From a bacterium (GTDB lineage Bacteria; Patescibacteriota; Minisyncoccia; 2-02-FULL-40-12; IGHO2-12-FULL-4), in NCBI GenBank assembly GCA_030695705.1, contig JAUYPS010000048.1, positions 1 through 43,721 of the forward strand: 43,721 nt of DNA, written 5' to 3'. The translations under genes and the position numbers were made by a program. The notes under the pieces were generated by a model, which worked only from the letters and a program-made list of their open reading frames with translations, did not search any database and was not told where the DNA came from. Positions 1 through 43,721 of the stretch are shown here, piece after piece (the first letter of the stretch is position 1; every line of letters begins with the position of its first letter).

Positions 1-1
1 A

Positions 2-2320
2 TTCCACGGCCAGGCCTCTTTGTATTCCTGGTTCGATGTTCTTAATGCCGGTCCCAATCCTTCGCTGAGATTCGACCCGTTCGATGACGATGTGGCCGAG
101 TACTTCCAAAACTCCAGAGACGGATACCGCTTCTTAAACCCGGGTTATACGCTGGGCGGGCCGGTTATCAAAGACAGAATCTGGTTTTTCTCAAGCTATT
201 TTTACCAGGGATCGAGAACAGACCGGTCGGTAAAGTTTTTGGCAGACGGGAAAACCAGGGATTTTGTCAGCCGGCAAAGGCAGGATTTCGCTTTGAACAA
301 AGTTGATTTCGCCCCTTTCGGCAACCTCAAAGGTTCTTTCAGCTACTACTATAAACCGTTAAAGACAATGGGCCTTCTTCCCAGCCAGCAAGGCACTGAT
401 TCTCCCAACTCCCCCTTCTCTCAGAAAGGCTATCGTCGGCCAGCCTCTTCCTATCAATGGCAGCTGGACTATATCGTCAGCAATAAGCTTCTGCTCGGCG
501 GTTTCGGCGGGTATCACTACAGCAACTTCAAAGATTACGGCACTCCCCGGGGAACTTATTATGCTTTTGCCAACTCCAACCTGAATGTCAATCTTCCCAT
601 TCCGGATAGTTTCCGGTATTCCGCCGGAAACATTACCGACAACAACATTCAAACGGTTCAGGATATTTACTCCCGGCACAACGCTAATTTGGTCGCTTCC
701 TATTTTACGGAAGGACTAGGTTTTCTTCCCGGCCAGCATAACATCAAAGCCGGTTACGACCTGAACCGGCTACATAATTCGCCGGTGGCCGACACTTGGC
801 CGGACGGATTTATCATCATGGTTTGGGACCGCGAGCGGCGTAAAATTACCGGACCAGGAAGTTCTCGAGGAGAATTGGGCTACTATGTGAACAGAGTTTT
901 CGGTACGGCCGGCCATGTGGCCAGTTCTAATCAGGGCTTATTTCTGCAGGATAGCTGGCAGGTAAAGTGGGGGTTCGCCTCCAGGCTCACTCTCAATGTG
1001 GGTCTGCGGACGGAAAAGGAGTTCGTCCCCTCTTTCCGGAACGACAGCGGCATTGCTTCCAAAGCCATTCAATTTGATTTTGCTGATAAAATTGCTCCGC
1101 GCCTGGGATTGGCCTTTGATCCGACCGGAAAGGGCGATACCACCATCCGTTTCAGTTATGGCGTTTATCACGATGTCATGAAATACGAACTTCCGCGAGG
1201 AAGTTTCGGCGGAGATAAGTGGAAAGATTACGTTTATAAGCTGGAAGATCCCAACTTCTTCAATATCAGACCCAGGCCGGCGCCCAACAGCCAGGCCGGA
1301 AATTTCCCGGGAGACTTGATTGAAGTGGTAGATTGGCGGATTCCTTCCAATGATCCGGAAAATAATCTGGTTGATCCGAACCTAAAGCCGGTGCGGCTAC
1401 ATGCTTTTGATTTCGACATGGAACGGACTTATCGGAGCAGCTGGATTTACGGTTTGCGTCTGGTCCGAAAGGTTTTGGACCGAACTGTCGAAGATGTGGG
1501 AACCCTTACCGACCACGGCGAACTTTACCGCATTACCAATCCGGGCTTTGGCGCTTCGCTTGACCCGCACAACTTCCCTTCTGATTTTCCGGAGCGGGTG
1601 ACTCCTCGCGCCAAAAGGAATTACAACGCGATGGAATTGAAGCTGGAGCGGCGGGAACAAGAGTATCTTGTTTCGGCCAGCTATACTTTCAGCCGTTTGG
1701 ATGGCAATTACGGCGGGCTGGCTTCATCGGACGAAAACGGCCGGACCAGTCCCAATGTCAATCGGTATTTCGACCTCCCTTGGATGAATTACGACTCTAA
1801 CGGAAAGCTGGTTTACGGAAGACTGGCTACGGACAGGCCTCATTTGTTCAAGTTTTTCGGCTCTTACGGGTTAAAGTCAAGATTCGGCACGACCCAGATC
1901 AGCCCGGTTTTATTCCTGATGAGCGGAACCCCGCTGTCGACGGAAGCGCAGATTATCTCTTCCACGCCGGTCTTTGTGAACGGAAGAGGCGACATGGGTC
2001 GTACTCCGGTCTTCTCCAATACCGACCTGAAAATTTCCCAGGACTTTAAAGTAAGTTCTGCCAGAGACAATCTGAAAATCAGGCTGGAAGCGGTAGTGGG
2101 TAATTTATTTAACCAGCGGACCGTCACCAATAAAGTATCCAACTATCTCCATCCTAACGACGGCCAGATCCAGTTCGACAACATGGCCGATGCGTTTAAA
2201 GGATACGACTACGAGGCCTTGCGCCTGGAACAGGAGTTAAGAACCGATCCGCGTTACGGAATGGCCAGCGGTTTCCAAAGTCCGCGGTCAATCAGGATTG
2301 GATTGCATTTTATTTTTTGA
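2..2320 (+). CDS. TonB-dependent-receptor-like outer-membrane beta-barrel protein, C-terminal ~770 aa (5' end cut by window edge)
   Basis: The frame is open from nt 2, upstream of the listed 20..2320 ORF. Motifs GGPVIKDRIWFFSSY and DRPHLFKFFGSYGL, and the C-terminus ...IRIGLHFIF with a terminal aromatic residue, are typical of TonB-dependent receptor-type barrels. A hairpin terminator follows. Confidence 0.65.
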   Translation, partial: FHGQASLYSWFDVLNAGPNPSLRFDPFDDDVAEYFQNSRDGYRFLNPGYTLGGPVIKDRIWFFSSYFYQGSRTDRSVKFLADGKTRDFVSRQRQDFALNKVDFAPFGNLKGSFSYYYKPLKTMGLLPSQQGTDSPNSPFSQKGYRRPASSYQWQLDYIVSNKLLLGGFGGYHYSNFKDYGTPRGTYYAFANSNLNVNLPIPDSFRYSAGNITDNNIQTVQDIYSRHNANLVASYFTEGLGFLPGQHNIKAGYDLNRLHNSPVADTWPDGFIIMVWDRERRKITGPGSSRGELGYYVNRVFGTAGHVASSNQGLFLQDSWQVKWGFASRLTLNVGLRTEKEFVPSFRNDSGIASKAIQFDFADKIAPRLGLAFDPTGKGDTTIRFSYGVYHDVMKYELPRGSFGGDKWKDYVYKLEDPNFFNIRPRPAPNSQAGNFPGDLIEVVDWRIPSNDPENNLVDPNLKPVRLHAFDFDMERTYRSSWIYGLRLVRKVLDRTVEDVGTLTDHGELYRITNPGFGASLDPHNFPSDFPERVTPRAKRNYNAMELKLERREQEYLVSASYTFSRLDGNYGGLASSDENGRTSPNVNRYFDLPWMNYDSNGKLVYGRLATDRPHLFKFFGSYGLKSRFGTTQISPVLFLMSGTPLSTEAQIISSTPVFVNGRGDMGRTPVFSNTDLKISQDFKVSSARDNLKIRLEAVVGNLFNQRTVTNKVSNYLHPNDGQIQFDNMADAFKGYDYEALRLEQELRTDPRYGMASGFQSPRSIRIGLHFIF

Positions 2321-2329
2321 AAGTTACAG

Positions 2330-2431: not shown

Positions 2432-3511
2432 GTGTTAAAATTTGTATTGGTTATTTTTTTTATGGCAGTTTCTCTGGGAAATATTTTTGCCCAAGTTCCA
2501 GGTCGTGGCGGTTCTTCTTATCTTTGGTACTACCGGGAATGGAAGGGACTTAATGGGTTTAGCGATTGTTATGGCGTCATCAAAAATTTTCATCTGGCGC
2601 ACGCCCAAGCTTATATCAAGGATAATCTGCAATATATGTATAATCAAGGCGGCCAAAGGAGACTGAATGTTATGATTTTTCATGCGCGAGACGCCAGATT
2701 AGTAGCGGCAGGATGTCCGTCAGTAAGCAACATTCCGGGAAACGGAACAATAATGAAGTATTATATAGGAAGCGATCTGGTTATTGGTACAGCCGACGAC
2801 GTGCTGGAGTTGCAATATTTGGAAAATTTATATAATTATGTTGACTATGCGGCTAGTCTCGGTTTTAAGGAGTTCATGGTAATGATGTCTCCGCAGTCAG
2901 CCAATTGGCCCGGATTCTGGTCAAATTTTGATCAATTTATGGCGGCTGGATTGTATGCGGAAAATCGACATATTCTCCAACTGGTGTATCAAACAATGCA
3001 AAATACCGGCCGCCCATTCAAGATTGTTTTGGCTGACGAGCCTCTTCAAAGCCCGCACAATGGTCAATATTATGACAGTGTTTATAGTTATGTGGCGCGT
3101 ATGTGGTCAGATTATTTTGAAGATGGAGGAAATCTGGCCGTTACCGGAGGGATTACCATGGCGGATGCCACCGGTTCCGATATAGAAAATCAAGTTAATG
3201 CTTTTCTTGATATATGCGACTCCGCCGGGTACGGCCGACCCTTATTTTATGTGCTGAATATTTTCGGCGATGAACAAAGAGGTTTTACCAACTTTCACCA
3301 GGCGCTGATCGCTCGCGGGTCGTTCGCGGAGCCGGTGATAATCGGGTCAACTTTCTATAATGATTCCGAAACTGCTTATAATTTAAGAAGCGTTTCCAAC
3401 AAGACTGGCAGAGTTATTGAGTTTGTATTGCAATGGCCGAAAATGAGAGCCAACGGTTTGGATAACATCTATGTTTCGGAGTTTTTCAACTATGCTATTT
3501 ATGGTTTTTGA
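2432..3511 (+). CDS. Secreted protein of unknown function (weak TIM-barrel glycosidase-like flavour only)
   Basis: 359-aa ORF with a GTG start 4-5 nt after RBS aagagg. N-terminal signal peptide MLKFVLVIFFMAVSLGNIFAQ. I recognise no confident family motif. Confidence 0.6.
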   Translation: MLKFVLVIFFMAVSLGNIFAQVPGRGGSSYLWYYREWKGLNGFSDCYGVIKNFHLAHAQAYIKDNLQYMYNQGGQRRLNVMIFHARDARLVAAGCPSVSNIPGNGTIMKYYIGSDLVIGTADDVLELQYLENLYNYVDYAASLGFKEFMVMMSPQSANWPGFWSNFDQFMAAGLYAENRHILQLVYQTMQNTGRPFKIVLADEPLQSPHNGQYYDSVYSYVARMWSDYFEDGGNLAVTGGITMADATGSDIENQVNAFLDICDSAGYGRPLFYVLNIFGDEQRGFTNFHQALIARGSFAEPVIIGSTFYNDSETAYNLRSVSNKTGRVIEFVLQWPKMRANGLDNIYVSEFFNYAIYGF

Positions 3512-3518
3512 TTAACAT

Positions 3519-3555
3519 TCCCTTACTCGGATTTGAGTGAGGGATTTACTTTTTT
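3519..3555 (+). terminator. Rho-independent terminator
   Basis: Hairpin tcccttactc-ggattt-gagtgaggga followed by tttactttttt. Confidence 0.55.
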
Positions 3556-3578
3556 AGCCGGGAGAATAGAATAAAAAC

Positions 3579-4139
3579 ATGAACATCAACGAAAAAATCG
3601 TGGATTTTGAAGTAGATGCCTATTACCAAGATGAGATTAAAAAGATTAAGTCGGCCGATTATCGCGGCCAATGGCTGATTTTGTTTTTCTATCCGGCGGA
3701 TTTTACTTTTGTCTGCCCTACCGAGCTTGAAGAACTGGCCGACCACTACGAAGAGTTTAAAAAAATGGGAGTGGAAGTCATGAGTGTCAGCACCGACACG
3801 GTTTATGTTCACAAAGCTTGGCATGATCAGTCCGAAACCATCAAAAAAATCCAATTTCCCATGCTGGCTGATCCTACCGGTAATTTGGCCAGGCAATTCG
3901 GCGTTTACATCGAAAAAGAGGGCTTGGCTTTGCGTGGAACATTCATTATCGACCCTGATGGGATTCTGAAGGCCTGCGAAGTGCATGACAATAGCATCGG
4001 CCGGAGCGTCAAAGAGTTAATCCGGAAAATTAAAGCCGCCCAATTCGTGGCCAAACACGGCGATCAGGTCTGCCCGGCCAGCTGGGAAGAAGGAGAAGAG
4101 ACTTTGAAGCCAGGATTGGATTTGGTGGGGAAGATTTGA
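3579..4139 (+). CDS. ahpC: Typical 2-Cys peroxiredoxin (AhpC/Prx1 family)
   Basis: Peroxidatic motif FFYPADFTFVCPTE and C-terminal resolving Cys context GDQVCPASW. 186 aa, which is the canonical length. Confidence 0.93.
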   Translation: MNINEKIVDFEVDAYYQDEIKKIKSADYRGQWLILFFYPADFTFVCPTELEELADHYEEFKKMGVEVMSVSTDTVYVHKAWHDQSETIKKIQFPMLADPTGNLARQFGVYIEKEGLALRGTFIIDPDGILKACEVHDNSIGRSVKELIRKIKAAQFVAKHGDQVCPASWEEGEETLKPGLDLVGKI

Positions 4140-4185
4140 TAAAATTAAAACAGGTTAAAAACCTGGTGGATCGAAAAAGAGTCAA

Positions 4186-4212
4186 ACAAAAAACCGCGTC
4201 TCGCGGTTTTTT
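4186..4212 (+). terminator. Rho-independent terminator of the peroxiredoxin gene
   Basis: aaaaaaccgcg-tct-cgcggtttttt: a GC-rich stem flanked by an A-run and a T-run. Confidence 0.75.
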
Positions 4213-4547
4213 GTTGTGGACCCGACGAGATTTGCACTCGTTTCTCTGCATGACAATGACAGAATTTTACTACATAAAACTACGGGCCCGGGTCCACGAC
4301 GGAAGTTTATCAAAAAGAAAAAGGACCCACAAATGAATGTAGATCCTTTATTCTGTCATGCAGATAAGCTCGTAGTTAAACATAGCTATTCCGTCATTAT
4401 CATAAGTATATCAAAATCAAAATTAATGTCAAATGAAACCCAAAAATGGGATAAAAGGGCCGTTTTTAGTTGACTCTAGAGCAATTTTGACAAAGACCCT
4501 ACTACTCTTTTGAACCCACTTAGATATTAGCGAAGTGCCTATGCCTA

Positions 4548-4706
4548 CTTCTTTTCAAATATGAGCTCGCCGGAATAAATAAGCGAAGATTTCTGAAATC
4601 AAGCCGGTTACAGAAAATTGGGTCGGATTCTTAGACGGGGTACCAATTTTTGTCGGCTTGATGAAGAAATCGAGTATTATTTATCGGCGAGTGATTCTTG
4701 AAAAGA
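4548..4706. repeat. Family D foldback element, copy D1 (~159 bp long hairpin, MITE-like)
   Basis: Self-complementary end to end (ttcttttcaa.../...ttgaaaagag; ctcgccggaataaata/tatttatcggcgag; aatcaagccgg/ccggcttgat). The ~87-nt core 4594-4680 differs at only 5 positions from 27107-27182. Confidence 0.8.
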
Positions 4707-4728
4707 GGGCGGCATAGACACGAAGCGA

Positions 4729-5643
4729 CTATCTTTTCTTATGAAACTTCTGATGCACTTCTTTAAGTCCCCTGTCGGTGACATGAGTGTAGATTTGAGT
4801 AGTGGTAATCGAGGAGTGGCCGAGAATGGCCTGAACGGAGCGGATATCGGCGCCATTTTGCAGTAAATCAGTAGCTAGTCCATGGCGCAAAGTATGCGGC
4901 GAAACATTTTTACCAACGATGCCGGCTCTGATGGCATGCTTCTTAACGATCCGCTGAATACTGCGGGAAGTCAGCCGCAGGTTTTCGTATTTGGCAAAGT
5001 TCTCTTTGGGGGGAATGCGGATAAAAAGAGCTGGATCGGCATCGGTTCGCTTTTTTAAATACCCGTCTAAAGACGTTTTGGCGCCGTCAGAAAAGAAAAC
5101 CAGCCGAATCTTCGAGCCTTTTCCTCTGACCGGCACCTCTCCCCTGCCAAGATCTATTTTATCTCGATCCAAAGAGCAAAGCTCCGCCACTCGCAAGCCG
5201 GTGCTGAAAAGAGTTTCTAAAATGGCTTTGTCGCGGAGATTAGTTAAGTCAGAACCTCCCGGGGAATTTAAAAGCCGTTCCAGTTCATTTGTTTCCAGAA
5301 AATCGATCTGCCGTTCTTCCTGTTTGCCCAGTTCCACCTTTTCGGCCGAAACAGTTTTGATTTCTCTTTTGGCCAGATATTTTAAAAAAGCTCGTAGGGC
5401 GATGATGTGGTAATTTTGGGTAATCTTCTTAAGCGGCTTGCCGTGAGCGTTAGTCGAACGGTTGAGGTGTAGGCGAAACTTTCTAATTACTTCTTCGGTA
5501 ATTTGTTGGGGCTGGGAGACTTGGGCAAAATCAAAAAATCGCTTGAGGTAATGATGATAGTTTTCCGTCGTTTTCGGCGAACGGTTTTTCTCTATCTCTA
5601 AATACTCGAGAAACTGAGTTTTTAACTGTTTAAGATCGGCCAT
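4729..5643 (-). CDS. xerC: Tyrosine site-specific recombinase, XerC/XerD family
   Basis: 304 aa. N-terminal SAM-like core-binding region (LEYLEIEKNRSPKTTENYHHYLKRFFDF). C-terminal catalytic motifs GLRVAEL, HTLRHGLATDLL and LGHSSITTTQIYTHV. XerC cannot be distinguished from XerD by eye. Confidence 0.88.
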   Translation of the reverse strand: MADLKQLKTQFLEYLEIEKNRSPKTTENYHHYLKRFFDFAQVSQPQQITEEVIRKFRLHLNRSTNAHGKPLKKITQNYHIIALRAFLKYLAKREIKTVSAEKVELGKQEERQIDFLETNELERLLNSPGGSDLTNLRDKAILETLFSTGLRVAELCSLDRDKIDLGRGEVPVRGKGSKIRLVFFSDGAKTSLDGYLKKRTDADPALFIRIPPKENFAKYENLRLTSRSIQRIVKKHAIRAGIVGKNVSPHTLRHGLATDLLQNGADIRSVQAILGHSSITTTQIYTHVTDRGLKEVHQKFHKKR

Positions 5644-5894: not shown

Positions 5895-6164
5895 AGGGGG
5901 TGTAGTATCCGAACAGAATCAATTTAGCGGAGCGAATTAGGGCAAGATTCACGGCGCGAGAAGCGATGTGTACTTGACGGAACATGAGCGACGAGCAACG
6001 AAGAAGCTTGCCCTAATTCGCTCCGCCCGAAGGGAAGTTAAAAAATGGCTGATTTCTTTGTTGCTCCTCCTCGAAGTACTTAAAGTACTCCTTCATAGTC
6101 GCGCCGCGAAATCATCTCATTTTTTAGCTTCTAATCTTGATTCATGTTCGGTTACTACACCCCT
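5895..6164. repeat. Family E 270-bp foldback element filling the antitoxin-toxin intergenic gap
   Basis: Outer arms agggggtgtagtatccgaacagaatcaatttagc (5895-5928) and gcttctaatcttgattcatgttcggttactacacccct (6127-6164) are inverted repeats. There is also a perfect inner 20-bp inverted repeat, gcggagcgaattagggcaag / cttgccctaattcgctccgc. Confidence 0.7.
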
Positions 6165-7068: not shown

Positions 7069-7128
7069 GAAACACATCAAGGTTTGATCTTTTTGCAGAT
7101 CCAAAGTCGAACCTTTATCGAATTGACT

Positions 7129-10195: not shown

Positions 10196-10239
10196 GAGCA
10201 GGTAATAAAATCTCAAGAGGCCTCCGGTGAACAAAGTTT

Positions 10240-11655
10240 TTGTTCCGTCAACAGTCCCCCAGACTGTTGACTCTCAAAAACTGTTCCCCTCCGCCTCTGG
10301 ATGATTTATTTCATGTTTCAAATTTAGCTTCACTCTTAATGGATGATCCAAAATTTTCGGTGCCGTCTAATTTACCGGTTGCCCAAGGGACGGCAGGTGT
10401 TCCGGCGCCTAAAAGCGATACCTCTTTCCGCTCTTCTATTCGGACCATGGAAAGCGATATAAAATCAGCTCAAACCGGGCAGACCCCTAAAGCATTTGAA
10501 GTTAAACCGCCCTTATTTTCTCCAACTCCTAAGCCGGTGCAACCCCCAGTTGCTATAAAGCCACTGTCTCCAATTCCAGGAGTTCCTCCTACCGGAATTA
10601 AACTAGGAGAAGCAGAAAAAAGAACTGCTCCTTTGCCGGGACAGGAAAAGTTAATCCCCTTTAGGCCGGAACAGAATCCGCCAGTTGGCAGATCGGAAAT
10701 TAAAGTAGCTCCTGCTACGCCCACTCCTCCTGTTGTTCCTGCGGCCCCGCTTCCGCTTCCGCCAATGTCTCCAAAACAACCTCCGGCACCGCTCGTCAGG
10801 CCCTTGCCAAGTCAGGGAGGTATTGCTGTTCCCCCGAAACAATTTTCTTTTGGAAATAAAAAAATCATGGCCGGCGCGGCACTGGTAGTTCTTATCGTAT
10901 TAGGCGGAATTTTGTATCTGCGCTCCGGACAAGAACCGGAAGATATTTCTGTAGCAACTCCCACGCCGTCTACCACCGTTTCTCCGGAGCTCACCTTGGG
11001 AGGAGGATCTTCTGTCACCACTTTATCCGGAATTTTTGGCCAGGCGTCCAGTACTGTTTTTCCAGGTATTTCCGACTCTTTCTCTACTTTTCAAAGTGGA
11101 ATGATTGGTTTAAGTAGTGATAATCCAAATAAAAACGTTTTAGTATCAATCAAAAAACCATCCGGAGAAAATTATAAGTTTTCAGAGTTTCTTGATCAAT
11201 TTTCAATTGTAGGTTTTCCAGTAAATTTAATCTCCGCTTTGGCAGACAACGATTTTAATTTAATTTTAACAAAACAAACAGAATTTTTTGACGAGAATGG
11301 GAAATTAATTGCTAATCCATCAGCCGAAATGCTTTTAACTCCCAAAATTGCTTTGGCGGTCAGAGTAATTGATGCCACGGAAGCCCGCAATCAGCTTACT
11401 TTGTGGGAAAATACGATGAAAGAAAGCTTTGGGGACTTTGGGGAATTTTATGATATTTTTTCGGTGCCAACGGAAAAAGTACCTTTCTCGGACAACCTTT
11501 ATCAAGGCGTTCCCATCAGATTTCTCAACTTTCCTTATGCGGACAAGGCCATTGATTACGCTATTGTTACCGCCAAAAACGGCAATGACTACTTAATTAT
11601 CGCCAACTCTCGAGAGCAAATGTACTCGATCATTGACAAACTGCTTGGCTTCTAA
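10240..11655 (+). CDS. Proline-rich, single-pass membrane protein of unknown function
   Basis: Long ORF with a Pro-rich low-complexity N-terminal half, a TM helix IMAGAALVVLIVLGGILYL, and a ~250-aa C-terminal domain. The start is uncertain: TTG at 10240 or ATG at 10339. Confidence 0.65.
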   Translation: MFRQQSPRLLTLKNCSPPPLDDLFHVSNLASLLMDDPKFSVPSNLPVAQGTAGVPAPKSDTSFRSSIRTMESDIKSAQTGQTPKAFEVKPPLFSPTPKPVQPPVAIKPLSPIPGVPPTGIKLGEAEKRTAPLPGQEKLIPFRPEQNPPVGRSEIKVAPATPTPPVVPAAPLPLPPMSPKQPPAPLVRPLPSQGGIAVPPKQFSFGNKKIMAGAALVVLIVLGGILYLRSGQEPEDISVATPTPSTTVSPELTLGGGSSVTTLSGIFGQASSTVFPGISDSFSTFQSGMIGLSSDNPNKNVLVSIKKPSGENYKFSEFLDQFSIVGFPVNLISALADNDFNLILTKQTEFFDENGKLIANPSAEMLLTPKIALAVRVIDATEARNQLTLWENTMKESFGDFGEFYDIFSVPTEKVPFSDNLYQGVPIRFLNFPYADKAIDYAIVTAKNGNDYLIIANSREQMYSIIDKLLGF

Positions 11656-11663: not shown

Positions 11664-11739
11664 GCAAATCAGCCATACACCCACTTGAAGATTCCGAGCG
11701 ATAAGTCGAGGTCGAAAGTGGGTGGTATGGCCGATTTGC
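11664..11739. repeat. Family A palindromic element, copy A1 (intergenic, 76 bp, diverged)
   Basis: gcaaatcagccatacacccacttga...tcgaaagtgggtggtatggccgatttgc. It shares the termini and architecture of the copies at 26763, 42572 and 43667, and starts 9 nt after the upstream stop codon. Confidence 0.85.
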
Positions 11740-13937: not shown

Positions 13938-14197
13938 GCGTAATCCCCGCTCCCCCATTTCAAAGATTCCCTCGAGATCAAATCCTGGTTTGATTTCGTC
14001 ATAAATCCTTATAAAAATCAGGTACCTGGTCGGCCTACAAAAATTAAAAGATTTACCTAAAGCAAATCTTTTAATTTATTTGTTTAATCAGAATTAATCG
14101 CCTCCCTCCTAGTTTGTTATAAGGCCTTTATTTCCTCAATCATCCTGGATTTGCTATCACTCGGTCATATTTTGAAATGGAGGAGTGGGGATTACGC
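13938..14197. mobile_element. Family G 260-bp MITE-like foldback with 27-bp terminal inverted repeats
   Basis: TIR-L gcgtaatccccgctcccccatttcaaa (13938-13964) against the reverse complement of TIR-R tttgaaatggaggagtggggattacgc (14171-14197) gives 25/27. The interior is also self-complementary (ataaatccttataa/ttataaggcctttat; central aaaagattt...aaatctttt). Confidence 0.7.
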
Positions 14198-21649: not shown

Positions 21650-21740
21650 CGGTAGCAACTCCCAGACCTATACAAGATCCGATCTTGTATAGCCACTAAT
21701 CAGCCCGAGATGGCCGATTGCAAAAGATGAGATACATCGA

Positions 21741-26530: not shown

Positions 26531-27061
26531 ATGAACGGGAAAGAATTTATCACTCAAAATACCAAAGAAACCCAGAAATTGGGGGGGATTTTGGCTAAAG
26601 AAATCGTTAGCAAACCTTCTTCGGAAAAAGCAGCGGTTATTGGCTTGGAGGGGGAGTTAGGAGCAGGTAAGACCACCTTCATAAAAGGTTTCGCCAAGGC
26701 CTTGGGAATAAAAGAAAAGATCTTAAGCCCCACTTTTGTTTTGATTAAGTCATATAAAATCGGCAAATCAGCCATACATCCACTCGAAAATTCTCGAGCG
26801 ACAAGTCGAGGGTCGAGAGTGGGTGGTATGGCTGATTTGCCGACTAACGAATATAAATTTTTAGTGCACATCGAGGCCTATCGCTTAAAAGACCATCGGG
26901 GTTTGCTTCCTTTAGGAATTAAAGAAATTTTAGCCGATCCGCAAAACATTATTCTGATTGAATGGTCAGACCGGGTTGCAAAAATCCTTCCCAGGAAATA
27001 CATCAAAATACACGTAGATCATATTGAAGAAAATATTAGGAAAATAAGAATACGCACCTAA
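26531..27061 (+). CDS. tsaE: tRNA t6A37 biosynthesis ATPase TsaE, carrying an in-frame palindromic-element insertion
   Basis: GLEGELGAGKTTFIKGFAKAL (Walker A), SPTFVLIKSY and HIEAYRL. At 176 aa it is about 26 aa longer than usual because of element A2. Confidence 0.85.
   Translation: MNGKEFITQNTKETQKLGGILAKEIVSKPSSEKAAVIGLEGELGAGKTTFIKGFAKALGIKEKILSPTFVLIKSYKIGKSAIHPLENSRATSRGSRVGGMADLPTNEYKFLVHIEAYRLKDHRGLLPLGIKEILADPQNIILIEWSDRVAKILPRKYIKIHVDHIEENIRKIRIRT
26763..26840. repeat. Family A palindromic element, copy A2 (78 bp, in frame inside tsaE)
   Basis: gcaaatcagccatacatccactcgaaaattctcgagcgacaagtcgagggtcgagagtgggtggtatggctgatttgc. It is translated as (G)KSAIHPLENSRATSRGSRVGGMADL(P). Confidence 0.9.
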
Positions 27062-27062
27062 T

Positions 27063-27219
27063 ATTTTTCAAATATGGTTGAGCGGTGCAAATAAACGAAG
27101 GTTTTGGAAATCAAGCCGGTAACAAAAATTGGGTCGGATTCTTAGACGGGGTACCAATTTTTGTCGGCTTGATGACAAAATCGAGTATAATTTGCCCGCG
27201 AAGATATCTTGTAAAATAT
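27063..27219. repeat. Family D foldback element, copy D2 (between tsaE and polA)
   Basis: Same architecture as D1. The core 27107-27182 is about 94% identical to 4594-4680. It occupies almost the whole tsaE-polA spacer. Confidence 0.8.
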
Positions 27220-27238
27220 TAGGTAAGTATTCTTATTT

Positions 27239-29899
27239 ATGAAAAAGTTAATTTTAATCGACGCCAATGCTCTTGTTCACCGGGCTTTCCACGCTTTGCC
27301 TCCGCTTACTTCTCCGGAAGGAATGGTGGTCAATGCCGTTTACGGATTTACCTCGGTTCTAATCAAAGCGATTAAAGACATGAAGCCGGACTATATGGCG
27401 GCGGCCTTTGATTTGGCCGGGCCGACTTTCCGTCATGAGGAGTTTGAGGAGTACAAAGCGCATCGCGAAAAAGCGCCCGATGAACTTTATGCCCAGATTC
27501 CGGTAATTAAAGATATGCTTCGCTCTTTCGGGGTGGAAATATTTGAGCAGGCCGGATTTGAGGCCGACGATTTGATCGGTTCGGTGGCGGAAGAAGCCAA
27601 GAAAGTCAAAGATTTACAGACGGTCATCTTGACGGGGGACTTGGACACTCTTCAGCTGGTGGATGACGAAAAAGTGCTGGTTTTAACTTTGCGCAAAGGA
27701 GTGAGTGACACGGTTTTATACGACGAGAAAGCGGTTAAAGAGCGATACGGCTTAGAACCGTATCAGGTTACTGATTTTAAGGGACTGAAAGGCGATCCAT
27801 CCGACAACATTCCCGGCGTGTCCGGAATCGGAGACAAAACCGCCACGGCTTTGCTTCAAGAATACGAAACTATCGAAAATCTTTACAAAGTTATCCACAC
27901 GCCAGGTTGGACCTTGCAGAAGGGGAAGGGGGTGTTGACGGTTAAATTAGTTGAAAAACTTAAGGAACATCAGGAACAGGCCATTTTCAGTAAACGGCTG
28001 GCGACTATAATTCGGGACGTAAAAATTAATTTTTCCTTGGCGGGAATTGACTGGCAGAACAAGTTCAATCGGGAAGAAATTGTCAGGTTACTGAAGGGTC
28101 TTGGGTTCCACAGTATTTTGCCGCGCTTGAACAATCTTGGCGTCGGTCCGGAACCGGAAGCAGTTGTGCCTGTCCAGATTGGTTTAGAACTGGAAAACAA
28201 AGCAGATCCTAAGTTACCTGTTAAAGCATGCAAAAATGAAAAAGATATTAACGAATTTCTCGATAAATTAAAGCCGGACCAGCCAGTTTATATTTACTAC
28301 AGTGAAAATAACTTCTATTTTTTACAAAGTTATCCACATGCCAGGTTGGACCTGGTAAAGGTGCCGGTTAATTTGATAAAAAATCTCCGGTCATTTTTCG
28401 AAGATGAACAAATACCGAAAAGGGGATATAACTTAAAACCTCTGATTAAAGTACTTCTCGACCACGGCATTCATTTAAAAAATTTGGATTTTGATATTGC
28501 CGTGGCTGCTTATTTGTCGCGGTCTGAAACGCGTGACTATGAGATTGATAAAATTTATTTTACTGAATTTGGCCAGTCGTTATCCGACGGCCCCTTGGCG
28601 ACCATAACCGCTTTGCCCAAATTATATGATGTCTTTTGGGATAAACTTAAGACAAAAAACTTAAATAGGGTTTTTCAGGAAGTTGATCTGCCTTTAGTGC
28701 CGGTGTTGGCTGAAATGGAAAGAAACGGAATTAAAATCGATTTGGATGGCCTAAAGACCCTTTCTCAAAAAGTCGAAAAGGAAGTTATTAAATTAGAGAA
28801 AGAGATTTATAAAATGGCCGGTGAGGAATTTAATATCAGTTCCCCCCAGCAGCTGGGCAAAATATTATTTGATAAACTGCTTTTAAAAACCAAAGTGCGC
28901 AAGACGCTGGGAGGAGCGCGGTCTACTGCTGTCTCTGAACTGGAAAAACTAAGAGACGAACATCCGATTATTGAATTAATTATTCAATATCGCGAATTGC
29001 AGAAACTCAAGACCACTTATATTGAGCCGTTTCCTGTTTTGGTTAATGCCAAGGACCAGCGTCTCCACACCACTTACAATCAGATGGGTACGGTTACCGG
29101 CCGGCTTTCCAGCCAGGATCCGAACCTACAGAATATTCCTATTCGGACTGAGTTGGGCCAGGAATTTCGCCGGACTTTTGTAGCGGAAGACGGTTACGAA
29201 TTAATTTCCTTAGATTATTCCCAACTTGAACTTCGCATTGCCGCTTTTTTATCCGGCGACCAAAAAATGCTTGATGCTTTCAGAAGAGGAGAGGATATTC
29301 ATACCCGCACGGCGGTGGAAATTTTTGAAGTTTCTCCGGAAAAAGTCACCCCCAATATGCGGCGCGAAGCCAAGGCGCTGAACTTTGGCATTTTATACGG
29401 CATGGGGGTTTTGGGATTTGCCCGTTCGGCGGGAGTGGATCGTTTGCGGGCTAGGGAATTTATTACCAAATATTTCAAGGAATTTTCAGGAATGGCCCGC
29501 TATATTGAGCATCTGAAAGAACAAGTCAGGAAAAATGGCTTTGTAGAAACATATTTCGGACGACGAAGGGAGTTGCCGGAAATTAATTCCGGTCTGCCCC
29601 AACTGGTAGCCCAGGCGGAAAGGATGGCTTCCAATGCCCCTATTCAGGGCACGGAGGCGGATATAATGAAACTGGCCATGATTAAGGTTTATGATTACGT
29701 TCATGCCGGTCATTTAGAAAGTGAAGCTCGCATTTTGCTTCAAGTCCACGATGAGCTATTATGTGAGGTGAAAGAGGAGAAAGCTCGGGAATTATCCTTA
29801 AAATTCAAGGAAATCATGGAGAAGGTCTGGGAGGTAGATGTGCCGATTATTGTTGACGTTAAAATAGGTAAAAACTGGGCGGAAATGAAAAAAATATAA
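27239..29899 (+). CDS. polA: DNA polymerase I
   Basis: 886 aa. 5'-nuclease domain (LILIDANALVHRAFHAL; GDPSDNIPGVSGIGDKTA). Polymerase motifs DYSQLELRIAAFLSGD, RREAKALNFGILYG and QVHDELL. Confidence 0.97.
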   Translation: MKKLILIDANALVHRAFHALPPLTSPEGMVVNAVYGFTSVLIKAIKDMKPDYMAAAFDLAGPTFRHEEFEEYKAHREKAPDELYAQIPVIKDMLRSFGVEIFEQAGFEADDLIGSVAEEAKKVKDLQTVILTGDLDTLQLVDDEKVLVLTLRKGVSDTVLYDEKAVKERYGLEPYQVTDFKGLKGDPSDNIPGVSGIGDKTATALLQEYETIENLYKVIHTPGWTLQKGKGVLTVKLVEKLKEHQEQAIFSKRLATIIRDVKINFSLAGIDWQNKFNREEIVRLLKGLGFHSILPRLNNLGVGPEPEAVVPVQIGLELENKADPKLPVKACKNEKDINEFLDKLKPDQPVYIYYSENNFYFLQSYPHARLDLVKVPVNLIKNLRSFFEDEQIPKRGYNLKPLIKVLLDHGIHLKNLDFDIAVAAYLSRSETRDYEIDKIYFTEFGQSLSDGPLATITALPKLYDVFWDKLKTKNLNRVFQEVDLPLVPVLAEMERNGIKIDLDGLKTLSQKVEKEVIKLEKEIYKMAGEEFNISSPQQLGKILFDKLLLKTKVRKTLGGARSTAVSELEKLRDEHPIIELIIQYRELQKLKTTYIEPFPVLVNAKDQRLHTTYNQMGTVTGRLSSQDPNLQNIPIRTELGQEFRRTFVAEDGYELISLDYSQLELRIAAFLSGDQKMLDAFRRGEDIHTRTAVEIFEVSPEKVTPNMRREAKALNFGILYGMGVLGFARSAGVDRLRAREFITKYFKEFSGMARYIEHLKEQVRKNGFVETYFGRRRELPEINSGLPQLVAQAERMASNAPIQGTEADIMKLAMIKVYDYVHAGHLESEARILLQVHDELLCEVKEEKARELSLKFKEIMEKVWEVDVPIIVDVKIGKNWAEMKKI
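27890..27928. repeat. Family B element, copy B3 (inside polA; right arm decayed)
   Basis: gttatccacacgccaggttggaccttgcagaag... shares tttacaaaGTTATCCACA-GCCAGGTTGGACCT with copy B4. It is translated as VIHTPGWTLQKGKG. Confidence 0.6.
28329..28367. repeat. Family B element, copy B4 (inside polA, different reading frame; right arm decayed)
   Basis: gttatccacatgccaggttggacctggtaaaggtgcc..., translated as SYPHARLDLVKVP. Confidence 0.6.
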
Positions 29900-30870: not shown

Positions 30871-31760
30871 CCCTCTCACTCTATTATGGAACGGATAGTT
30901 TTCGAGTTAAGGAAGCAGTAGAGAAAAAGGCCGCTTCTTTTTTGGCTAAATACAAAGACGGTTTGGTGGAGAGGTTGGATTTTGAGAAGGAAAATTGTCT
31001 GGAAGAAGTGGAAAATATTTTGAAAAGACGCTCTTTTTTCAATGAGCCGGAATTAATAATCGTTTATGCCCATATTTCCGCCAAGGACTTGCCAAAAAAG
31101 AATAAAAAACTTTTTGAACTTTTAACCAAGAAAGCGGAAGAAACAAAAGAATTTGAAAGCATCAAAGGATCTGCCTTGGAAAAGTGGGCTTTGGAGAAAA
31201 TAACCCAAGCCGGTTTTAGCATAAAATCACTGGCTCTAAAAAAACTGATTCTTCGAGTTGTTTCGCAAGGGCAGTTGTCCCAGGAAATTGATAAGCTGAT
31301 CGCTTACCAAAGTTATCACGGCAAAAAGGAAATAGACGACCAAGCCCTAGTTATCCACTTACCAGGTTGGACCTGGAATGTGGATAACTTTGCTTTGATT
31401 GATGCTATTGGGTCTCGCGATATTAAAAAATCAGTAGCGCTTTTAAACCAAACCTTGGCTGATGGTATGGAGCCGCATGCTGTTTTGGGCCAAATTATTT
31501 ACCAATTCAGAAATTTGTTGAAGGTAAAGAGTTACACGGCTGCCGTGTATATACACGGCAGCCGTGTAACTGTCGAGAATATTGCTAAGCTAACCGGTCT
31601 GCATCCTTTTGTCGCTCAAAAAACCAGCCGACAAGCCAGACAGTTCGAGTTAGAAGAATTAAAAAAGGCCTATCGGTATTTATCGGAACTGGATATAACA
31701 TCAAAAACCGGCCAAGTTGATTTAACGGCCGGTTTGTTTCAGCTTTTATTGCAAATTTAG
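30867..31760 (+). CDS. holA: DNA polymerase III delta subunit (HolA-like), carrying two palindromic insertions
   Basis: 297 aa. The N-terminus LYYGTDSFRVKEAVEKK and overall layout are typical of short HolA proteins. The start overlaps the upstream stop (ATGA). Confidence 0.7.
   Translation: MTLSLYYGTDSFRVKEAVEKKAASFLAKYKDGLVERLDFEKENCLEEVENILKRRSFFNEPELIIVYAHISAKDLPKKNKKLFELLTKKAEETKEFESIKGSALEKWALEKITQAGFSIKSLALKKLILRVVSQGQLSQEIDKLIAYQSYHGKKEIDDQALVIHLPGWTWNVDNFALIDAIGSRDIKKSVALLNQTLADGMEPHAVLGQIIYQFRNLLKVKSYTAAVYIHGSRVTVENIAKLTGLHPFVAQKTSRQARQFELEELKKAYRYLSELDITSKTGQVDLTAGLFQLLLQI
31350..31388. repeat. Family B palindrome, copy B2 (39 bp = 13 codons, in frame inside holA)
   Basis: gttatccacttaccagg-ttgga-cctggaatgtggataac, with 2 mismatches in the 17-bp arms. 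Translated as VIHLPGWTWNVDN. Confidence 0.85.
31540..31579. repeat. Family C palindrome, copy C2 (perfect 20+20 bp, inside holA)
   Basis: gttacacggctgccgtgtat|atacacggcagccgtgtaac. Translated as (S)YTAAVYIHGSRVT. Confidence 0.85.
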
Positions 31761-35065: not shown

Positions 35066-35068
35066 ACA

Positions 35069-35097: not shown

Positions 35098-35184
35098 ATT
35101 CGCATCTGATAGTCCGCTCCGGCTGGACGAGGTCTGACAGATGCTGTAAGGTATGGTAAAAGTACCTTTAAAAAGAGGTGAGAG

Positions 35185-40784: not shown

Positions 40785-41421
40785 AAGAACTCCGGAAATT
40801 AAACAAGTTACGATCGATTTTTATAACCGGTTTTGCTATCAATACTGGGAAAGGCATCCCAATGCGCCGGTAAAGTCGATGGAAAAATTCGCCAAAATGC
40901 TGCGGGGTCCGAATATTCTTGATTTGGGATGCGGGGGCGGACACTCGGCGGTATTTAAAATGATGGGTATAAAGCTTGGTCTTGGTATGCATTTGAATCC
41001 TATCGCAGCAGATATTAGTCCCATTATGTGTCTGGCGGCAAAACAAAAAGGCGGTTTGCCAGCTGTGGTAATGGACCAGGAAAATCTTTGTTTTAAACCG
41101 AACAGCTTTGACGGAGCATGGTTATCGAAATCGCTCCTTCATTCTCCTTCGGAAGTCGTGCCGGGGATTCTGGCCGATCTACGGCTGATCCTAAAACCTC
41201 GGGGCGTTCTTTTCCTCGGCATGCAGGCGAGCATCGGACAGTATATAGAAACTGAACTAAAAACAACCGAGATCGGCACTAGGTACTATTGTTATTGGCC
41301 GACTTATCGCTTACACGGCCTGCTGGAAACTTTAGGTTTCGCAGTGGAGGAGCTGTCTATTCACGGCAAGGACTCCTTAAATAAGAGAAATTACTTCGAA
41401 ATTTTCGCTGTTAAGGAGTAG
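40777..41421 (+). CDS. Class I SAM-dependent methyltransferase
   Basis: ATG at 40777 after RBS aaggag, overlapping the GT2 3' end by 8 nt. Motif I ILDLGCGGGHSA and post-I/II regions are present. Confidence 0.8.
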   Translation: MVERTPEIKQVTIDFYNRFCYQYWERHPNAPVKSMEKFAKMLRGPNILDLGCGGGHSAVFKMMGIKLGLGMHLNPIAADISPIMCLAAKQKGGLPAVVMDQENLCFKPNSFDGAWLSKSLLHSPSEVVPGILADLRLILKPRGVLFLGMQASIGQYIETELKTTEIGTRYYCYWPTYRLHGLLETLGFAVEELSIHGKDSLNKRNYFEIFAVKE

Positions 41422-41422
41422 A

Positions 41423-41461
41423 GTTATCCACATCCCAGGTCCAACCTGGGATGTGGATAAC
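41423..41461. repeat. Family B palindrome, copy B1 (perfect 17-bp arms), acting as a hairpin between convergent genes
   Basis: gttatccacatcccagg-tccaa-cctgggatgtggataac. The loop is inverted relative to the holA/polA copies. It starts 2 nt after the methyltransferase stop and touches the recG stop codon. Confidence 0.8.
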
Positions 41462-43656
41462 TATTCGAAGTGGCGGATTTTTTGGAATTGGGCCAGTTGA
41501 TTTTTGAGTAAAGGATAAGATGATAATCCCGGATCTTCTTTAAGTAAAAGCTTGGCTTCTAACCGGGCTTTTTTTATTAATTCTAAATCAGTCAGAGAGG
41601 CCATAGCCAGATCCGGCATTCCGGATTGTTTGTTTCCGGTAAATTCTCCCGGTCCGCGTAATTTCAAGTCCTCTTCAGCTAACTGGAATCCGTCTTCACA
41701 ATTTTCCAAACATTTGAGCCGTTTATTTTCGAAGCGATTATCTCCGCCGTTGACCAAAAGGCAGGAGGACTGATGTTCAGCGCGTCCGACTCGCCCGCGG
41801 AATTGATGAAGCTGGGCCAGGCCAAATCTTTCCGCATTCTCAATTAGCATGACCGAAGCGTTGGGGATATCGACACCCACTTCCACTACGGAAGTGGAGA
41901 CCAGAATGTCGTAAAAGCCGTTTTTGAATCCGGCCATTATTTTTTCTTTTTCTTTTGGTTTCATTTTTCCGTGAAGCATGGCAATTTTAAACTGCGGAAA
42001 AATCTTTTTAGAAAGCTTTTCGTATTCTTCGGTGACGGCTTTTACTTCCGACCAAAGCACATTCATTTTGTCTTTGCCGTTTTTGGCTTTTATTGTTTCT
42101 TGGGGGTTAGCCAGTTCAATGCGGGGACAGATTACAAAGATCTGCCGGCCAGCTTTTATCTCTTTTTCCAGAAATTGATAGGCCTTTTGTTCCTGATTTT
42201 TTGCAATTACTTTAGTCGTAATTTTTTTGCGATTTTTTGGTTTTTCTTTAATCAAAGAAATATCCAGATCTCCATAAATAGTTAGGGCCAGAGTGCGGGG
42301 GATAGGAGTGGCCGTCATACTCAAGAGATGCGGAACGTGGGCGGAGTTTTTAAGCAGAGCGGCCCGCTGTTCAACTCCAAATCGATGCTGTTCATCTAAA
42401 ATTGCCAATCCTAGTTCTTTGAATCTGACATCTTTTTGGATAACTGCATGCGTGCCGATTAAAATCCCGATTTCTCCTTTGGCAATTTTTTCTTGCATTA
42501 TTTTCTTGCTTACTTTTTTCTCTAGACCGTTACGGCTAAATCGGGCCTCACTTCCGGTAAGTAGCCCAATTACTAAACCAGGCAAGTCAGCCGTATGCCC
42601 ACTCGAAAATTCCCGAGCGACAAGTCGAGGGTCGAGAGTGGGTGGTATGGCTGATTTGCCTAATAAAGAAGTTATTGTGCCGAAGTGTTGGCGGGCCAGA
42701 ATCTCGGTCGGAGCCATAAAGACCGCCTGTTTTTTTTGGCGGGCTGTTTGGTAAGCAGCTGTTAAGGCCACCACGGTTTTACCAGAGCCAACGTCTCCAT
42801 TCAAAAGACGGTTCATGGGGTATTTTTTTTCCAGATCTTTTAGAATCTCAAAGGTCGCTATTTTTTGGTCGCCGGTCAGTTCAAAGGGCAAAGAATCAAC
42901 AAAACTTTTTACTTTTTGCGGTTCAAATTTTATGGGGACAGATTTTAGCTGCAAAGCTTGCCGGCGACTGGCAATTGATTTTAATTGGAATAAAAATAAT
43001 TCCTCAAAAGCCATTCTTTGTCTTGACTGTTTTGCCTCTTCTGGAGAATCCGGGAAATGGATACTTTTGACGGCGGAATTAAGTGAAGGGAAATCATATT
43101 TTTCTAGAACGTGTTTCGGCAAGGGATCAGATGAAATGTCCACAGCAGATAAGAGGGGCTTTATTAAAAAACGGAGATATTTAGAAGTTACTCCTTCTGT
43201 TTCCGGGTAGACCGGAACAAGTCGGCCGGTATGAGTCGGAAAGTTAGAGGTGAGTTTTTCGTAAGCGGGATTAGAAAGGTATAATCCGTGCTTATCTAAA
43301 GATGTTTTTCCAGAAATACTGACCCGGGTCTCTAAAGGAAGGGAATTTTCCAGATAGGGCTGATTGAACCAGATCGCCCGCACCACTCCGCTGTGATCCT
43401 GAACGAAGGCCTCCGTTACCGATCTTCTGTGCCACAAAGAAGTTGTTTTTATTTTTATAATCTCTCCTTGCAGAGAAACTATTTCCCCGGGTTCACGGAT
43501 TTCTTCCGCCGGTACTTGCCGTCTATAATCTTCGTAGCGATGAGGAAAATGCCATAACAAACCCCTGACTGTTTCAATGCCGAGTTTTTTTAGGCGCGGC
43601 AAATTTTTTGATCCTACCCCGGAAAGTTTTTCGATGGGAGTATCGAGAGGAAGCAT
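41461..43656 (-). CDS. recG: ATP-dependent DNA helicase RecG, carrying an in-frame palindromic-element insertion
   Basis: 731 aa. N-terminus LSGVGSKNLPRLKKLGIETVRGLLWHFPHRYEDY, wedge domain, and helicase motifs GDVGSGKT, DEQHRFGV, MTATPIPRT and QLHQFRGRVGR. Confidence 0.95.
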   Translation of the reverse strand: MLPLDTPIEKLSGVGSKNLPRLKKLGIETVRGLLWHFPHRYEDYRRQVPAEEIREPGEIVSLQGEIIKIKTTSLWHRRSVTEAFVQDHSGVVRAIWFNQPYLENSLPLETRVSISGKTSLDKHGLYLSNPAYEKLTSNFPTHTGRLVPVYPETEGVTSKYLRFLIKPLLSAVDISSDPLPKHVLEKYDFPSLNSAVKSIHFPDSPEEAKQSRQRMAFEELFLFQLKSIASRRQALQLKSVPIKFEPQKVKSFVDSLPFELTGDQKIATFEILKDLEKKYPMNRLLNGDVGSGKTVVALTAAYQTARQKKQAVFMAPTEILARQHFGTITSLLGKSAIPPTLDPRLVAREFSSGHTADLPGLVIGLLTGSEARFSRNGLEKKVSKKIMQEKIAKGEIGILIGTHAVIQKDVRFKELGLAILDEQHRFGVEQRAALLKNSAHVPHLLSMTATPIPRTLALTIYGDLDISLIKEKPKNRKKITTKVIAKNQEQKAYQFLEKEIKAGRQIFVICPRIELANPQETIKAKNGKDKMNVLWSEVKAVTEEYEKLSKKIFPQFKIAMLHGKMKPKEKEKIMAGFKNGFYDILVSTSVVEVGVDIPNASVMLIENAERFGLAQLHQFRGRVGRAEHQSSCLLVNGGDNRFENKRLKCLENCEDGFQLAEEDLKLRGPGEFTGNKQSGMPDLAMASLTDLELIKKARLEAKLLLKEDPGLSSYPLLKNQLAQFQKIRHFE
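42572..42649. repeat. Family A palindromic element, copy A3 (78 bp, in frame inside recG, antisense orientation relative to the gene)
   Basis: gcaagtcagccgtatgcccactcgaaaattcccgagcgacaagtcgagggtcgagagtgggtggtatggctgatttgc. On the recG strand it is translated as (G)KSAIPPTLDPRLVAREFSSGHTADL(P). Confidence 0.9.
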
Positions 43657-43666
43657 GGTCTTATTA

Positions 43667-43721
43667 GCAAATCAGCCATACACCCACTCGAAAATTCCCG
43701 AGCGACAAGTCGAGGGTCGAG
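43667..43721. repeat. Family A palindromic element, copy A4 (left part; truncated by window end)
   Basis: gcaaatcagccatacacccactcgaaaattcccgagcgacaagtcgagggtcgag. It begins 10 nt beyond the recG start codon, i.e. in the recG 5' leader. Confidence 0.85.

Follow-up and report, generated by a model that had tools for sequence, protein, structure and literature searches.

What are the short hairpin-forming repeats that lie within and between the housekeeping genes of contig JAUYPS010000048.1, and how did they come to be there? The window analysed here is the whole of this contig, 43,721 bp from a metagenome-assembled genome (MAG) in NCBI (proteins MDP37313xx, locus tags Q8R34_), and its gene content includes pnp, rpsO, comM, dksA, tsaE, polA, holA, recG, a PrkA-DUF444-SpoVR operon and one XerC/D-type recombinase gene. 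The repeats listed below, which together amount to about 1.6 kb or 3.7% of the window, very probably represent several families of short, non-autonomous, hairpin-forming selfish elements that have become dispersed in and among the genomes of a Parcubacteria-group lineage. The copies that persist are located either at gene boundaries or inside genes, where they are in-frame, stop-free inserts in variable surface loops of housekeeping proteins.

The nearest relatives of the window PolA protein are encoded by locus L010, an ENA contig (84% identity), L007 (77%) and L008 (74%), followed by proteins of Candidatus Yanofskybacteria (64-67%). The L007 protein is the one named "Parcubacteria group bacterium Gr01-1014_44", and it is encoded on the MAG CAZOKW01. 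Because these relatives are Parcubacteria-group and Yanofskybacteria MAGs, the host is, to judge by its PolA, a bacterium of the Candidate Phyla Radiation (CPR; Patescibacteria) that belongs to the Parcubacteria group, in agreement with the candidate-phylum origin assumed previously. The MAG CAZOKW01, which contributes L001, L002, L005, L006 and L007, is titled "uncultured Candidatus Saccharibacteria"; given that its PolA is a Parcubacteria-group protein that groups with Yanofskybacteria, this label is probably wrong. Exact-protein look-ups with the window proteins returned no match. For the comparison of gene order and insertion sites, syntenic loci from four relatives (L007, L008, L010 and L011) were used.

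The families were recovered by self-BLAST and repeat finding, and the hairpins were scored by the z-score of the DNA fold relative to shuffled sequences. Perfect inverted 14-mers within 250 nt of one another occur at 8 loci in the window, compared to 1.4 expected and a maximum of 3 among the shuffles. An earlier note, made from the sequence alone, had described eight unrelated palindromic families (A to H), all of them hairpin-forming, and had read them as non-autonomous palindromic elements; this interpretation is supported, with corrections to the family count and a few details only. Families A, B, C, D, E and G are confirmed by self-BLAST and folding, F turned out to be a second copy of D (D2) together with its outer arms, and no confident identification can be given for H (~35 bp), for which the candidates at 20046-20072 and 21698-21724 are weak. 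Two families, I (10209-10306) and J (21668-21692), are to be added to the list. The statement that the families share no sequence does not hold: G is distantly D-like, as a weak nhmmer hit and the shared boundary motif TTTCAAA indicate, and the core of B resembles the J palindrome. Folding with z = -4.5 to -11.5 is found across the families, the exception being two half copies of B in polA (z ~ -0.6). The positions reported for the six copies inside genes are correct, with no frame broken: tsaE and recG hold one A copy each, polA holds two copies of B, and holA holds one of B and one of C. The remaining copies are 0-30 nt away from a gene end, as had been described.

Family A is a hairpin of 76-78 nt composed of a 23-bp outer stem with one bulge and a small inner hairpin. 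The four window copies (z = -4.6 to -7.9) and the genes that contain two of them are as follows.

A1, 11664..11739, plus strand: 76 nt, beginning 8 nt past the stop codon of the open reading frame (ORF) 10240-11655; z = -7.2.
A2, 26763..26840, plus strand: 78 nt or 26 codons, in frame within tsaE; encodes GKSAIHPLENSRATSRGSRVGGMADLP.
tsaE, host gene of A2, 26531..27061, plus strand: matches Pfam TsaE in two stretches.
A3, 42582..42659, plus strand: in frame within recG, in the orientation opposite to the gene; encodes GKSAIPPTLDPRLVAREFSSGHTADLP.
recG, host gene of A3, 41461..43656, minus strand: identified by Pfam and by alignment to a solved structure.
A4, 43667..43721, plus strand: truncated where the contig ends; lies 10 nt upstream of the start codon of recG.

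Both intragenic copies have a length of 78 nt and begin at the second codon position, and alignment with the solved TsaE and RecG structures (PDB) places about 30 extra residues exactly at A2 and A3, between conserved blocks. L010, L007 and L011 have an empty A2 site in tsaE and differ there from the window by exactly 78 nt, with no duplicated flank; given the empty site in three relatives, A2 represents a clean insertion without target duplication. In recG, an A element is present in L032 at the same site as A3 of the window. An AlphaFold2 model of the window TsaE built from an alignment of 76 homologs has a confident core (mean predicted local distance difference test score, pLDDT, of 88.8), whereas the A2 insert (approximately residues 78-108) forms a low-confidence loop with pLDDT of 55-73 between the strands 72-76 and 110-115. 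A model computed from the single sequence had a pLDDT of 45 and was unusable. Thus, the A2 insert is predicted to reside at the protein surface and to be compatible with the TsaE fold.

The choice of reading frame is strongly biased. About half of the A copies, in the window and in other loci, are located within long ORFs and about half are intergenic. Apart from tsaE and recG, the hosts identified by Pfam are DNA polymerase III delta-prime, a SpoU methylase, an O-antigen-ligase-like protein (Wzy_C), glycosyltransferases of the GT1 and GT2 families, UvrC, TsaD and RNase HII. When orthologous copies are counted once, there are 12 independent intragenic events, 11 of which use the frame (G/S)KSAI...ADL(P), compared to about one half expected if stop codons alone counted (p ~0.003). 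Among the remaining frames, one contains a stop codon, and the other open frame, which is hydrophobic (ANQPY...WLIC), is used once. Because the element is palindromic, the hydrophilic frame starts with GKSAI and ends with ADLP in both orientations. The inserts are probably translated, to judge by the open frame; the predicted junction-spanning tryptic peptides are SAIHPLENSR and VGGMADLPTNEYK. A protein search with the four A-encoded peptides joined returned only the TsaE of the window itself among 5.8 billion sequences, since 27-residue peptides score too low against a set of this size.

Several insertions of A are kept across orthologs (SpoU in 4 contigs, TsaD and RecG). One site in tsaD carries the element in either orientation (L029 versus L036), and the encoded central peptides differ accordingly. 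The 6.7-kb contig L036 carries two tsaD genes (2923-4092 and 3-893) about 2 kb apart, with A at the same codon position and in opposite orientation, which suggests either inversion of the palindrome in situ or an independent insertion.

Family A is not confined to the window. A search for the exact pattern of the A arm in one genome per GTDB species detects 6 loci, namely four contigs of CAZOKW01, one in another MAG and one in a Giovannonibacteria genome (the matching genomes are two MAGs labelled Saccharibacteria and one Giovannonibacteria), and the same pattern occurs at 28 loci in JGI metagenomes. An nhmmer profile search of the window and 39 loci yields about 38 unique A copies, all between 76 and 129 nt in length. 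Members of the other families were also detected outside the window: B in L010, L033/L035, L015/L027 and L039; C in L010, with C-like copies in L004/L028; and D, I and J in the loci given below. Thus, the suspicion that these are local duplications only is not borne out. Non-orthologous copies of A are 88-96% identical, whereas the DNA of flanking orthologous genes is ~77-86% identical, a difference that points to recent spread or else to a strongly constrained element.

The hairpin itself is what is conserved. In an alignment of 27 A copies, 98.9% of the cells are base-paired, and 8 pairs are changed on both sides (e.g., CC/GG is replaced by AA/TT in L036); none of 500 shuffles reached these pairing values, and in slid controls about 35% is paired. 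Hence compensatory substitutions preserve the hairpins. The 3' arm is almost invariant, and the single-sided changes are concentrated in the 5' arm. Among the single-sided mismatches, G.T on the plus strand of the element accounts for 20 cells compared to 4 cells with A.C, and this pattern tracks the orientation of the element, not the sense strand of the host gene. The asymmetry hints that one particular folded strand of A is recognised.

Families B, C and J consist of shorter palindromes. B is a 41-nt palindrome represented in the window by two full copies and two half copies that share the left arm and the loop only; C is a nearly perfect palindrome of 41-42 nt with two copies in the window.

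B1, 27882..27929, plus strand: half copy (conserved part 27882-27914) in polA, phase 2; encodes KVIHTPGWTLQKG; no fold, z = -0.5.
B2, 28321..28368, plus strand: half copy (28321-28353) in polA, phase 0, 439 nt from B1; no fold, z = -0.7.
B3, 31346..31392, unstranded: full palindrome (31349-31389), in frame in holA; z = -6.9.
B4, 41419..41465, unstranded: full palindrome (41422-41462) exactly between the convergent stop codons of the methyltransferase ORF 40756-41421 and recG; z = -9.0.
C1, 18427..18467, unstranded: 41 nt, located 28 nt upstream of the ORF 18496-19257; z = -9.5.
C2, 31530..31571, unstranded: perfect palindrome of 42 nt or 14 codons, in frame in holA; z = -10.5.
polA, host gene of B1 and B2, 27239..29899, plus strand: identified by Pfam and by its relatives.
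holA (DNA polymerase III delta), host gene of B3 and C2, 30867..31760, plus strand: identified by Pfam.
J, 21668..21692, unstranded: 25-nt palindrome TATACAAGATCCGATCTTGTATAG following the ORF 20849-21649.

The distribution of these copies among the relatives is patchy. B3, B4 and C2 all have orthologs in L010 (that of B4 at L010 12793-12838) and all are absent from L007, L008 and L011, relative to which C2 gives HolA 12 extra amino acids. L039 and L027 contain identical copies of J, and a similar sequence occurs at the second polA site of L008; this site carries B-type or J-type palindromes, depending on the lineage. The arms of B contain the canonical DnaA-box sequence TTATCCACA, which is perfect in both arms of B4. 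There are 7 perfect sites of this kind in the window, compared to 0.27 expected.

TTATCCACA sites within B copies: 27891, 28330, 31379, 41424 and 41452.
TTATCCACA sites outside B: 20805 and 22770.

The latter two sites are 1.9 kb apart in inverted orientation and flank the ORFs 20849-21649 and 21835-22716. This pair was considered as a possible transposon and rejected: both enclosed ORFs have N-terminal hydrophobic segments, read as signal peptides, and no Pfam domain.

The remaining families are longer foldbacks. Family D, of about 200 nt, comprises a conserved core of about 160 nt and outer arms specific to each copy. Two copies are present in the window and one each in L001 and L006, and family I has copies in L002 and L014.

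D1, 4522..4734, plus strand: core ~4544-4704; overlaps the stop codon of the XerC/D-like gene; z = -9.6.
XerC/D-type tyrosine recombinase gene, 4729..5643, minus strand: the sole recombinase in the window.
E, 5897..6163, unstranded: foldback of 267 nt that contains an inner hairpin with 24-nt arms at 5927-6026; lies in a divergent intergenic region; z = -11.5.
I, 10209..10306, unstranded: foldback of ~98 nt just past the pnp stop codon; z = -6.4.
G, 13938..14197, unstranded: foldback of 260 nt bounded by terminal inverted repeats of 27 nt; starts 9 nt past the comM stop codon; z = -10.2.
D2 (formerly "F"), 27042..27238, plus strand: fills the tsaE-polA junction; z = -9.9.

D2 supplies the last codons and the stop codon of tsaE and ends at the ATG of polA. 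The same junction is occupied by a copy of A in L010 and by an unrelated spacer in L007; tsaE and polA overlap in L008 and L011. Among the four D copies the outer arms vary, yet within each copy they are complementary, and 29 of the 70 predicted pairs show a compensatory change. All four copies are co-oriented with the flanking genes, and three end right at the next start codon. A specific leader or riboswitch was considered for D and rejected, given that the downstream genes (polA, an aminoacyl-tRNA synthetase and a glycosyltransferase) are unrelated. The XerC/D-like gene is the only recombinase of the window, as stated in the earlier note, which put its 3' end 22 nt from D1; D1 as delimited here overlaps its stop codon. 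A link between this gene and D is rejected, too, because no recombinase adjoins the other D copies. Scans of viral contigs with the A arm, the G end and the inner arm of E produced no match.

Elements also occur inside the apical loops of other elements. Eight longer copies of A (123-129 nt) carry in the apical region one of two other mini-hairpins, of which one resembles the hairpin nested in both polA copies of B in L010, and the other stands alone at a variable polA site of L007 and L008. At the turn of the TsaE beta-hairpin, 26 of the 76 aligned homologs (P0126-P0235) have 2 to 31 extra residues, of many different sequences, relative to a base state of 29 residues; these inserts include two more A copies and apparent deletion remnants of A (GKSAIHLPEN; ADLPKN). 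For three unrelated inserts at this turn (L040, L041 and L042), the DNA was examined, and all three fold into hairpins (z = -2.2 to -5.6, one of them weakly). The alignment thus marks the TsaE turn as an apparent insertion hot spot across CPR, and because unrelated inserts fold as hairpins as well, the phenomenon is wider than the families of the window. A bolder generalisation, which is offered tentatively and would not be the safer bet, is that a large and still undescribed set of mini-hairpin elements exists in CPR genomes as a group. These elements would leave no target duplication on insertion, would favour apical loops of other hairpins and permissive loops of essential proteins as sites, and would move between distant CPR lineages by a strand-specific mechanism acting on single-stranded hairpins via an unrecognised enzyme. 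If this is true, mini-hairpin elements would be a main source of lineage-specific insertions in the housekeeping proteins of CPR, the TsaE turn being an example.

How could such elements move? The most likely route is mobilisation in trans, by an enzyme that would be encoded outside the window and would recognise the folded single strand. The 5' arm of A appears to tolerate only those changes that keep G.T pairing on one strand, a pattern compatible with recognition of the folded strand. Selection would then remove the insertions that break genes, leaving behind the copies at gene boundaries and those in tolerated protein loops, and some of the former may act as RNA stem-loops.

A number of observations weigh against selfish mobile elements as an explanation or at least leave the proposed mechanism short of support. 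No longer element bounded by A ends was found in ~350 kb of related DNA. Pfam detects no transposase domain among the ORFs of the window, where the earlier note had likewise seen none, and none appears in the list of the 25 Pfam families that are most frequent in 147 ORFs at related loci, a list that leaves out families with a single member. The 34 flanks of A show neither a direct repeat indicative of target-site duplication nor a fixed target motif, the only signal being a purine at -1 and a pyrimidine at +1. The orientation of A is unbiased with respect to local GC skew (15 versus 15) and therefore lends no support to a mechanism of the IS200/IS605 type that depends on single-stranded DNA of the lagging strand at the replication fork. 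The G.T asymmetry comes from about 12-14 independent events. E and G have no second copy in any DNA reached. Translation of the inserted peptides is deduced from the open frame. Finally, B1 and B3 substitute for native sequence with almost no change in length, which is unusual for a simple insertion and may reflect later trimming in hypervariable linkers, or conversion.

The alternatives are best examined against the same observations. The repeats could primarily be structured RNA or DNA motifs that serve a function, for instance as intercistronic stem-loops, terminators, 5' leaders or DnaA-binding sites, and that are maintained by selection on the host and are not selfish. Such a role, which would apply mostly to D and to the copies at gene boundaries, would fit the consistent orientation of D and its abutment on start codons, the dense compensation of its pairs, the location of many copies exactly at gene ends, and the perfect TTATCCACA in both arms of B together with the excess of this sequence in the window. 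It does not account for the unrelated genes downstream of D or for the occurrence of the same elements within coding sequences in both orientations and their presence or absence among close relatives; a scan of the window against Rfam gave no match at the gathering score and, at E<=1, just three weak matches, none of which fell on a repeat family. This explanation is unlikely as a whole, and given that mobility and co-option are compatible, it would be an addition to selfish spread more than a replacement for it. A second alternative, in which the copies spread through homologous recombination, gene conversion or the transfer of gene segments among related CPR genomes and hairpin-templated repair keeps them symmetric, is more doubtful still. 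It derives some credit from B, given the replacement of native sequence at near-equal length by B1 and B3, the greater similarity of B1 and B2 within a genome than between orthologous sites, and the fact that polA of the window has a simple B pair while L010 has the same nested-hairpin composite at both sites; the outer arms of D, variable between copies and complementary within each, are also in line with it. However, A2 is a clean 78-nt insertion with unrelated flanks, and A resides in at least 12 unrelated genes that have no common flanking homology to guide recombination.

The possibility that the inserted peptides are protein modules selected for their function, with the palindromic DNA being incidental, has very little to recommend it beyond the predominance of one reading frame and the retention of some insertions (SpoU, TsaD, RecG) across orthologs. 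Against it, the same TsaD site encodes a different central peptide in each orientation of the element, about half of the A copies are intergenic, B is found in different frames, compensatory changes keep the base pairing and not the peptide, and the TsaE insert is a low-confidence loop in the predicted structure. Least probable, to the point of being negligible, is an artefact of assembly or binning. The contig does end inside an A copy (A4), which indicates that the A repeat disturbs assembly. Nevertheless, the same insertions occur at orthologous sites with intact frames in independent assemblies from NCBI, JGI, ENA and Logan (the recG insertion in L032; B3, C2 and B4 in L010), the lengths of the inserts are multiples of three, and other assemblies have clean empty sites, so that an assembly artefact, which the earlier note had allowed for, is excluded for these insertions.

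The selfish, mobile hairpin elements favoured here are most readily compared with the Rickettsia palindromic elements (RPEs). RPEs (Ogata et al. 2000, 2002) are described as several palindromic families of 105-146 bp that are inserted in frame in conserved genes, with no clear target duplication and no known transposase (PMC2229807, PMC10969869). Both the RPEs and the protein-coding palindromic repeats of Wolbachia resemble the CPR elements in being dispersed stem-loop families with many copies in frame in housekeeping genes and the rest intergenic; further shared features are a conserved encoded peptide, inserts that appear compatible with the protein fold, and a host with a reduced genome. 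The differences concern the host (Alphaproteobacteria versus CPR/Patescibacteria), the size (41-78 nt for A, B and C), the range of family A, which spans distinct CPR groups (Parcubacteria-group MAGs and Giovannonibacteria), the nesting of the CPR elements in one another's loops, and the strand-specific G.T mismatches. Strict membership in RPE-1 to RPE-10 is precluded by the length of A, B and C and by a host outside Rickettsiales; the behavioural features of RPEs, in contrast, are all observed, including dispersal in multiple copies (A, B, C, D, I and J), stem-loop folding, in-frame insertion and, as a prediction, fold compatibility. The likeness is one of behaviour; no sequence relationship between the two is known, nor would one be expected. 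By analogy, then, the CPR elements behave like an RPE-like invasion of genes, carried out by unrelated, shorter elements in a different phylum. [quoted passage not shown]

Other classes of small palindromic elements fit less well. Classical MITEs (Correia/NEMIS, ERIC and RUP) usually have TA termini, target-site duplications and terminal repeats matching a known insertion sequence (IS), e.g., RUP and IS630-Spn1, and the 107-bp form of Correia as well as ERIC are occasionally fused in frame to ORFs (PMC2229807). Like these, the CPR elements are small, non-autonomous stem-loop repeats with inverted ends, located mostly at gene boundaries; unlike them, A has no TA termini and no target-site duplication (to judge from the filled and empty tsaE site and the 34 flanks), and no cognate IS was found for it in ~350 kb of related DNA. 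Elements of the REP/REPIN type, which are mobilised by RAYT, are imperfect palindromes of 20-40 nt, extragenic by definition and associated with a GTAG or CGTC tag (PMC3733652). B, C and J are similar to REP in size, local density is high and hairpins are formed in both cases, and an HUH-type enzyme acting on single strands would be a plausible mobiliser. The CPR copies, however, lie in genes, the A flanks have no consistent GTAG/CGTC tag, and no RAYT gene was found in the sampled DNA.

Palindrome-associated elements derived from IS200/IS605 transpose without target duplication, need folded single-stranded ends and are subject to strand-specific constraints. The lack of target duplication, the strand-specific constraint and, as proposed, the dependence on folded single-stranded DNA are shared by A; in contrast to the IS200/IS605 derivatives, A has no conserved 5' target tetranucleotide and no orientation bias relative to GC skew, and the whole element is one hairpin instead of two subterminal ones. 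Thus, because target duplication and TA ends, extragenic location and a tag, and a fixed target and replication bias are all lacking (as tested on A), the behaviour of the CPR elements falls outside the classical MITE, REP-RAYT and IS200/IS605 classes. Short mobile palindromes within coding genes are also known in fungal mitochondria, namely the GC clusters and "byp" elements, the latter being skipped by the ribosome; the CPR inserts differ in that their frame is open and they are probably translated. The palindromic coding repeats known as PARCEL are tandem and reside within genes for surface proteins (PMC2996958), unlike the dispersed single insertions described here.

Selfish DNA of the RPE type in coding genes has hitherto been treated as peculiar to Rickettsia and a small number of other endosymbionts. 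That CPR elements behave alike suggests that such invasion is a recurrent liability of reduced genomes that depend on a host. It also offers an explanation for many lineage-specific insertions in the core proteins of CPR, with consequences for annotation, alignments and phylogenetic markers, and accounts for some of the contig breaks seen in MAGs of CPR. The mobilising enzyme can be sought by means of family A, a defined sequence family of which about 38 copies are known across genomes.

Several other features of the window and its relatives deserve mention. Another class of selfish elements is probably present in the same genomes, given that LAGLIDADG homing endonuclease domains are found in several ORFs of the related contigs L012-L039 (3 plus 2 members); these ORFs are probably intron-encoded, as is known for the rRNA genes of CPR. 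A search of the window for tRNA genes detected none.

Some hairpins of the window are not mobile repeats or need not be. Two perfect palindromes, one at 4185-4215 after a peroxiredoxin gene and one at 26462-26497 after the gene for a PKD-domain protein, were rejected as mobile families; each is accompanied by T-runs and resembles an ordinary intrinsic terminator. The second palindrome is conserved at L010 75-110. The first is overlapped by a weak Rfam match to the rimP leader at 4145-4242 on the minus strand (35.5 bits compared to the gathering score of 47, E = 0.035), which is most likely a chance match to the hairpin. A small hairpin at 7077-7116, just 5' of rpsO (ribosomal protein S15) and 87-92% conserved in L033 and L035, could be the S15 autoregulatory leader and not a mobile repeat. 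A different kind of repeat is found at 14859-14902, between the ORF 14246-14656 and a LysM/M23 peptidase gene, where the 8-nt unit TGACACTA occurs in about five tandem copies.

A 766-residue ORF at 20-2320 matches the OMP_b-brl_4 family of outer-membrane beta-barrels (E = 4.6e-29), and the region that it occupies is GC-rich (51% compared to ~43%). CPR bacteria are thought to have no outer membrane, so that this match is unexpected. At 31830-39056, the window contains a PrkA-DUF444-SpoVR-PrkA cluster similar to yeaG-yeaH-ycgB, which is thus present in this CPR lineage. The cluster is inverted in L007, L010 and L011 relative to the window and L008, and a single adjoining PrkA gene is called there.

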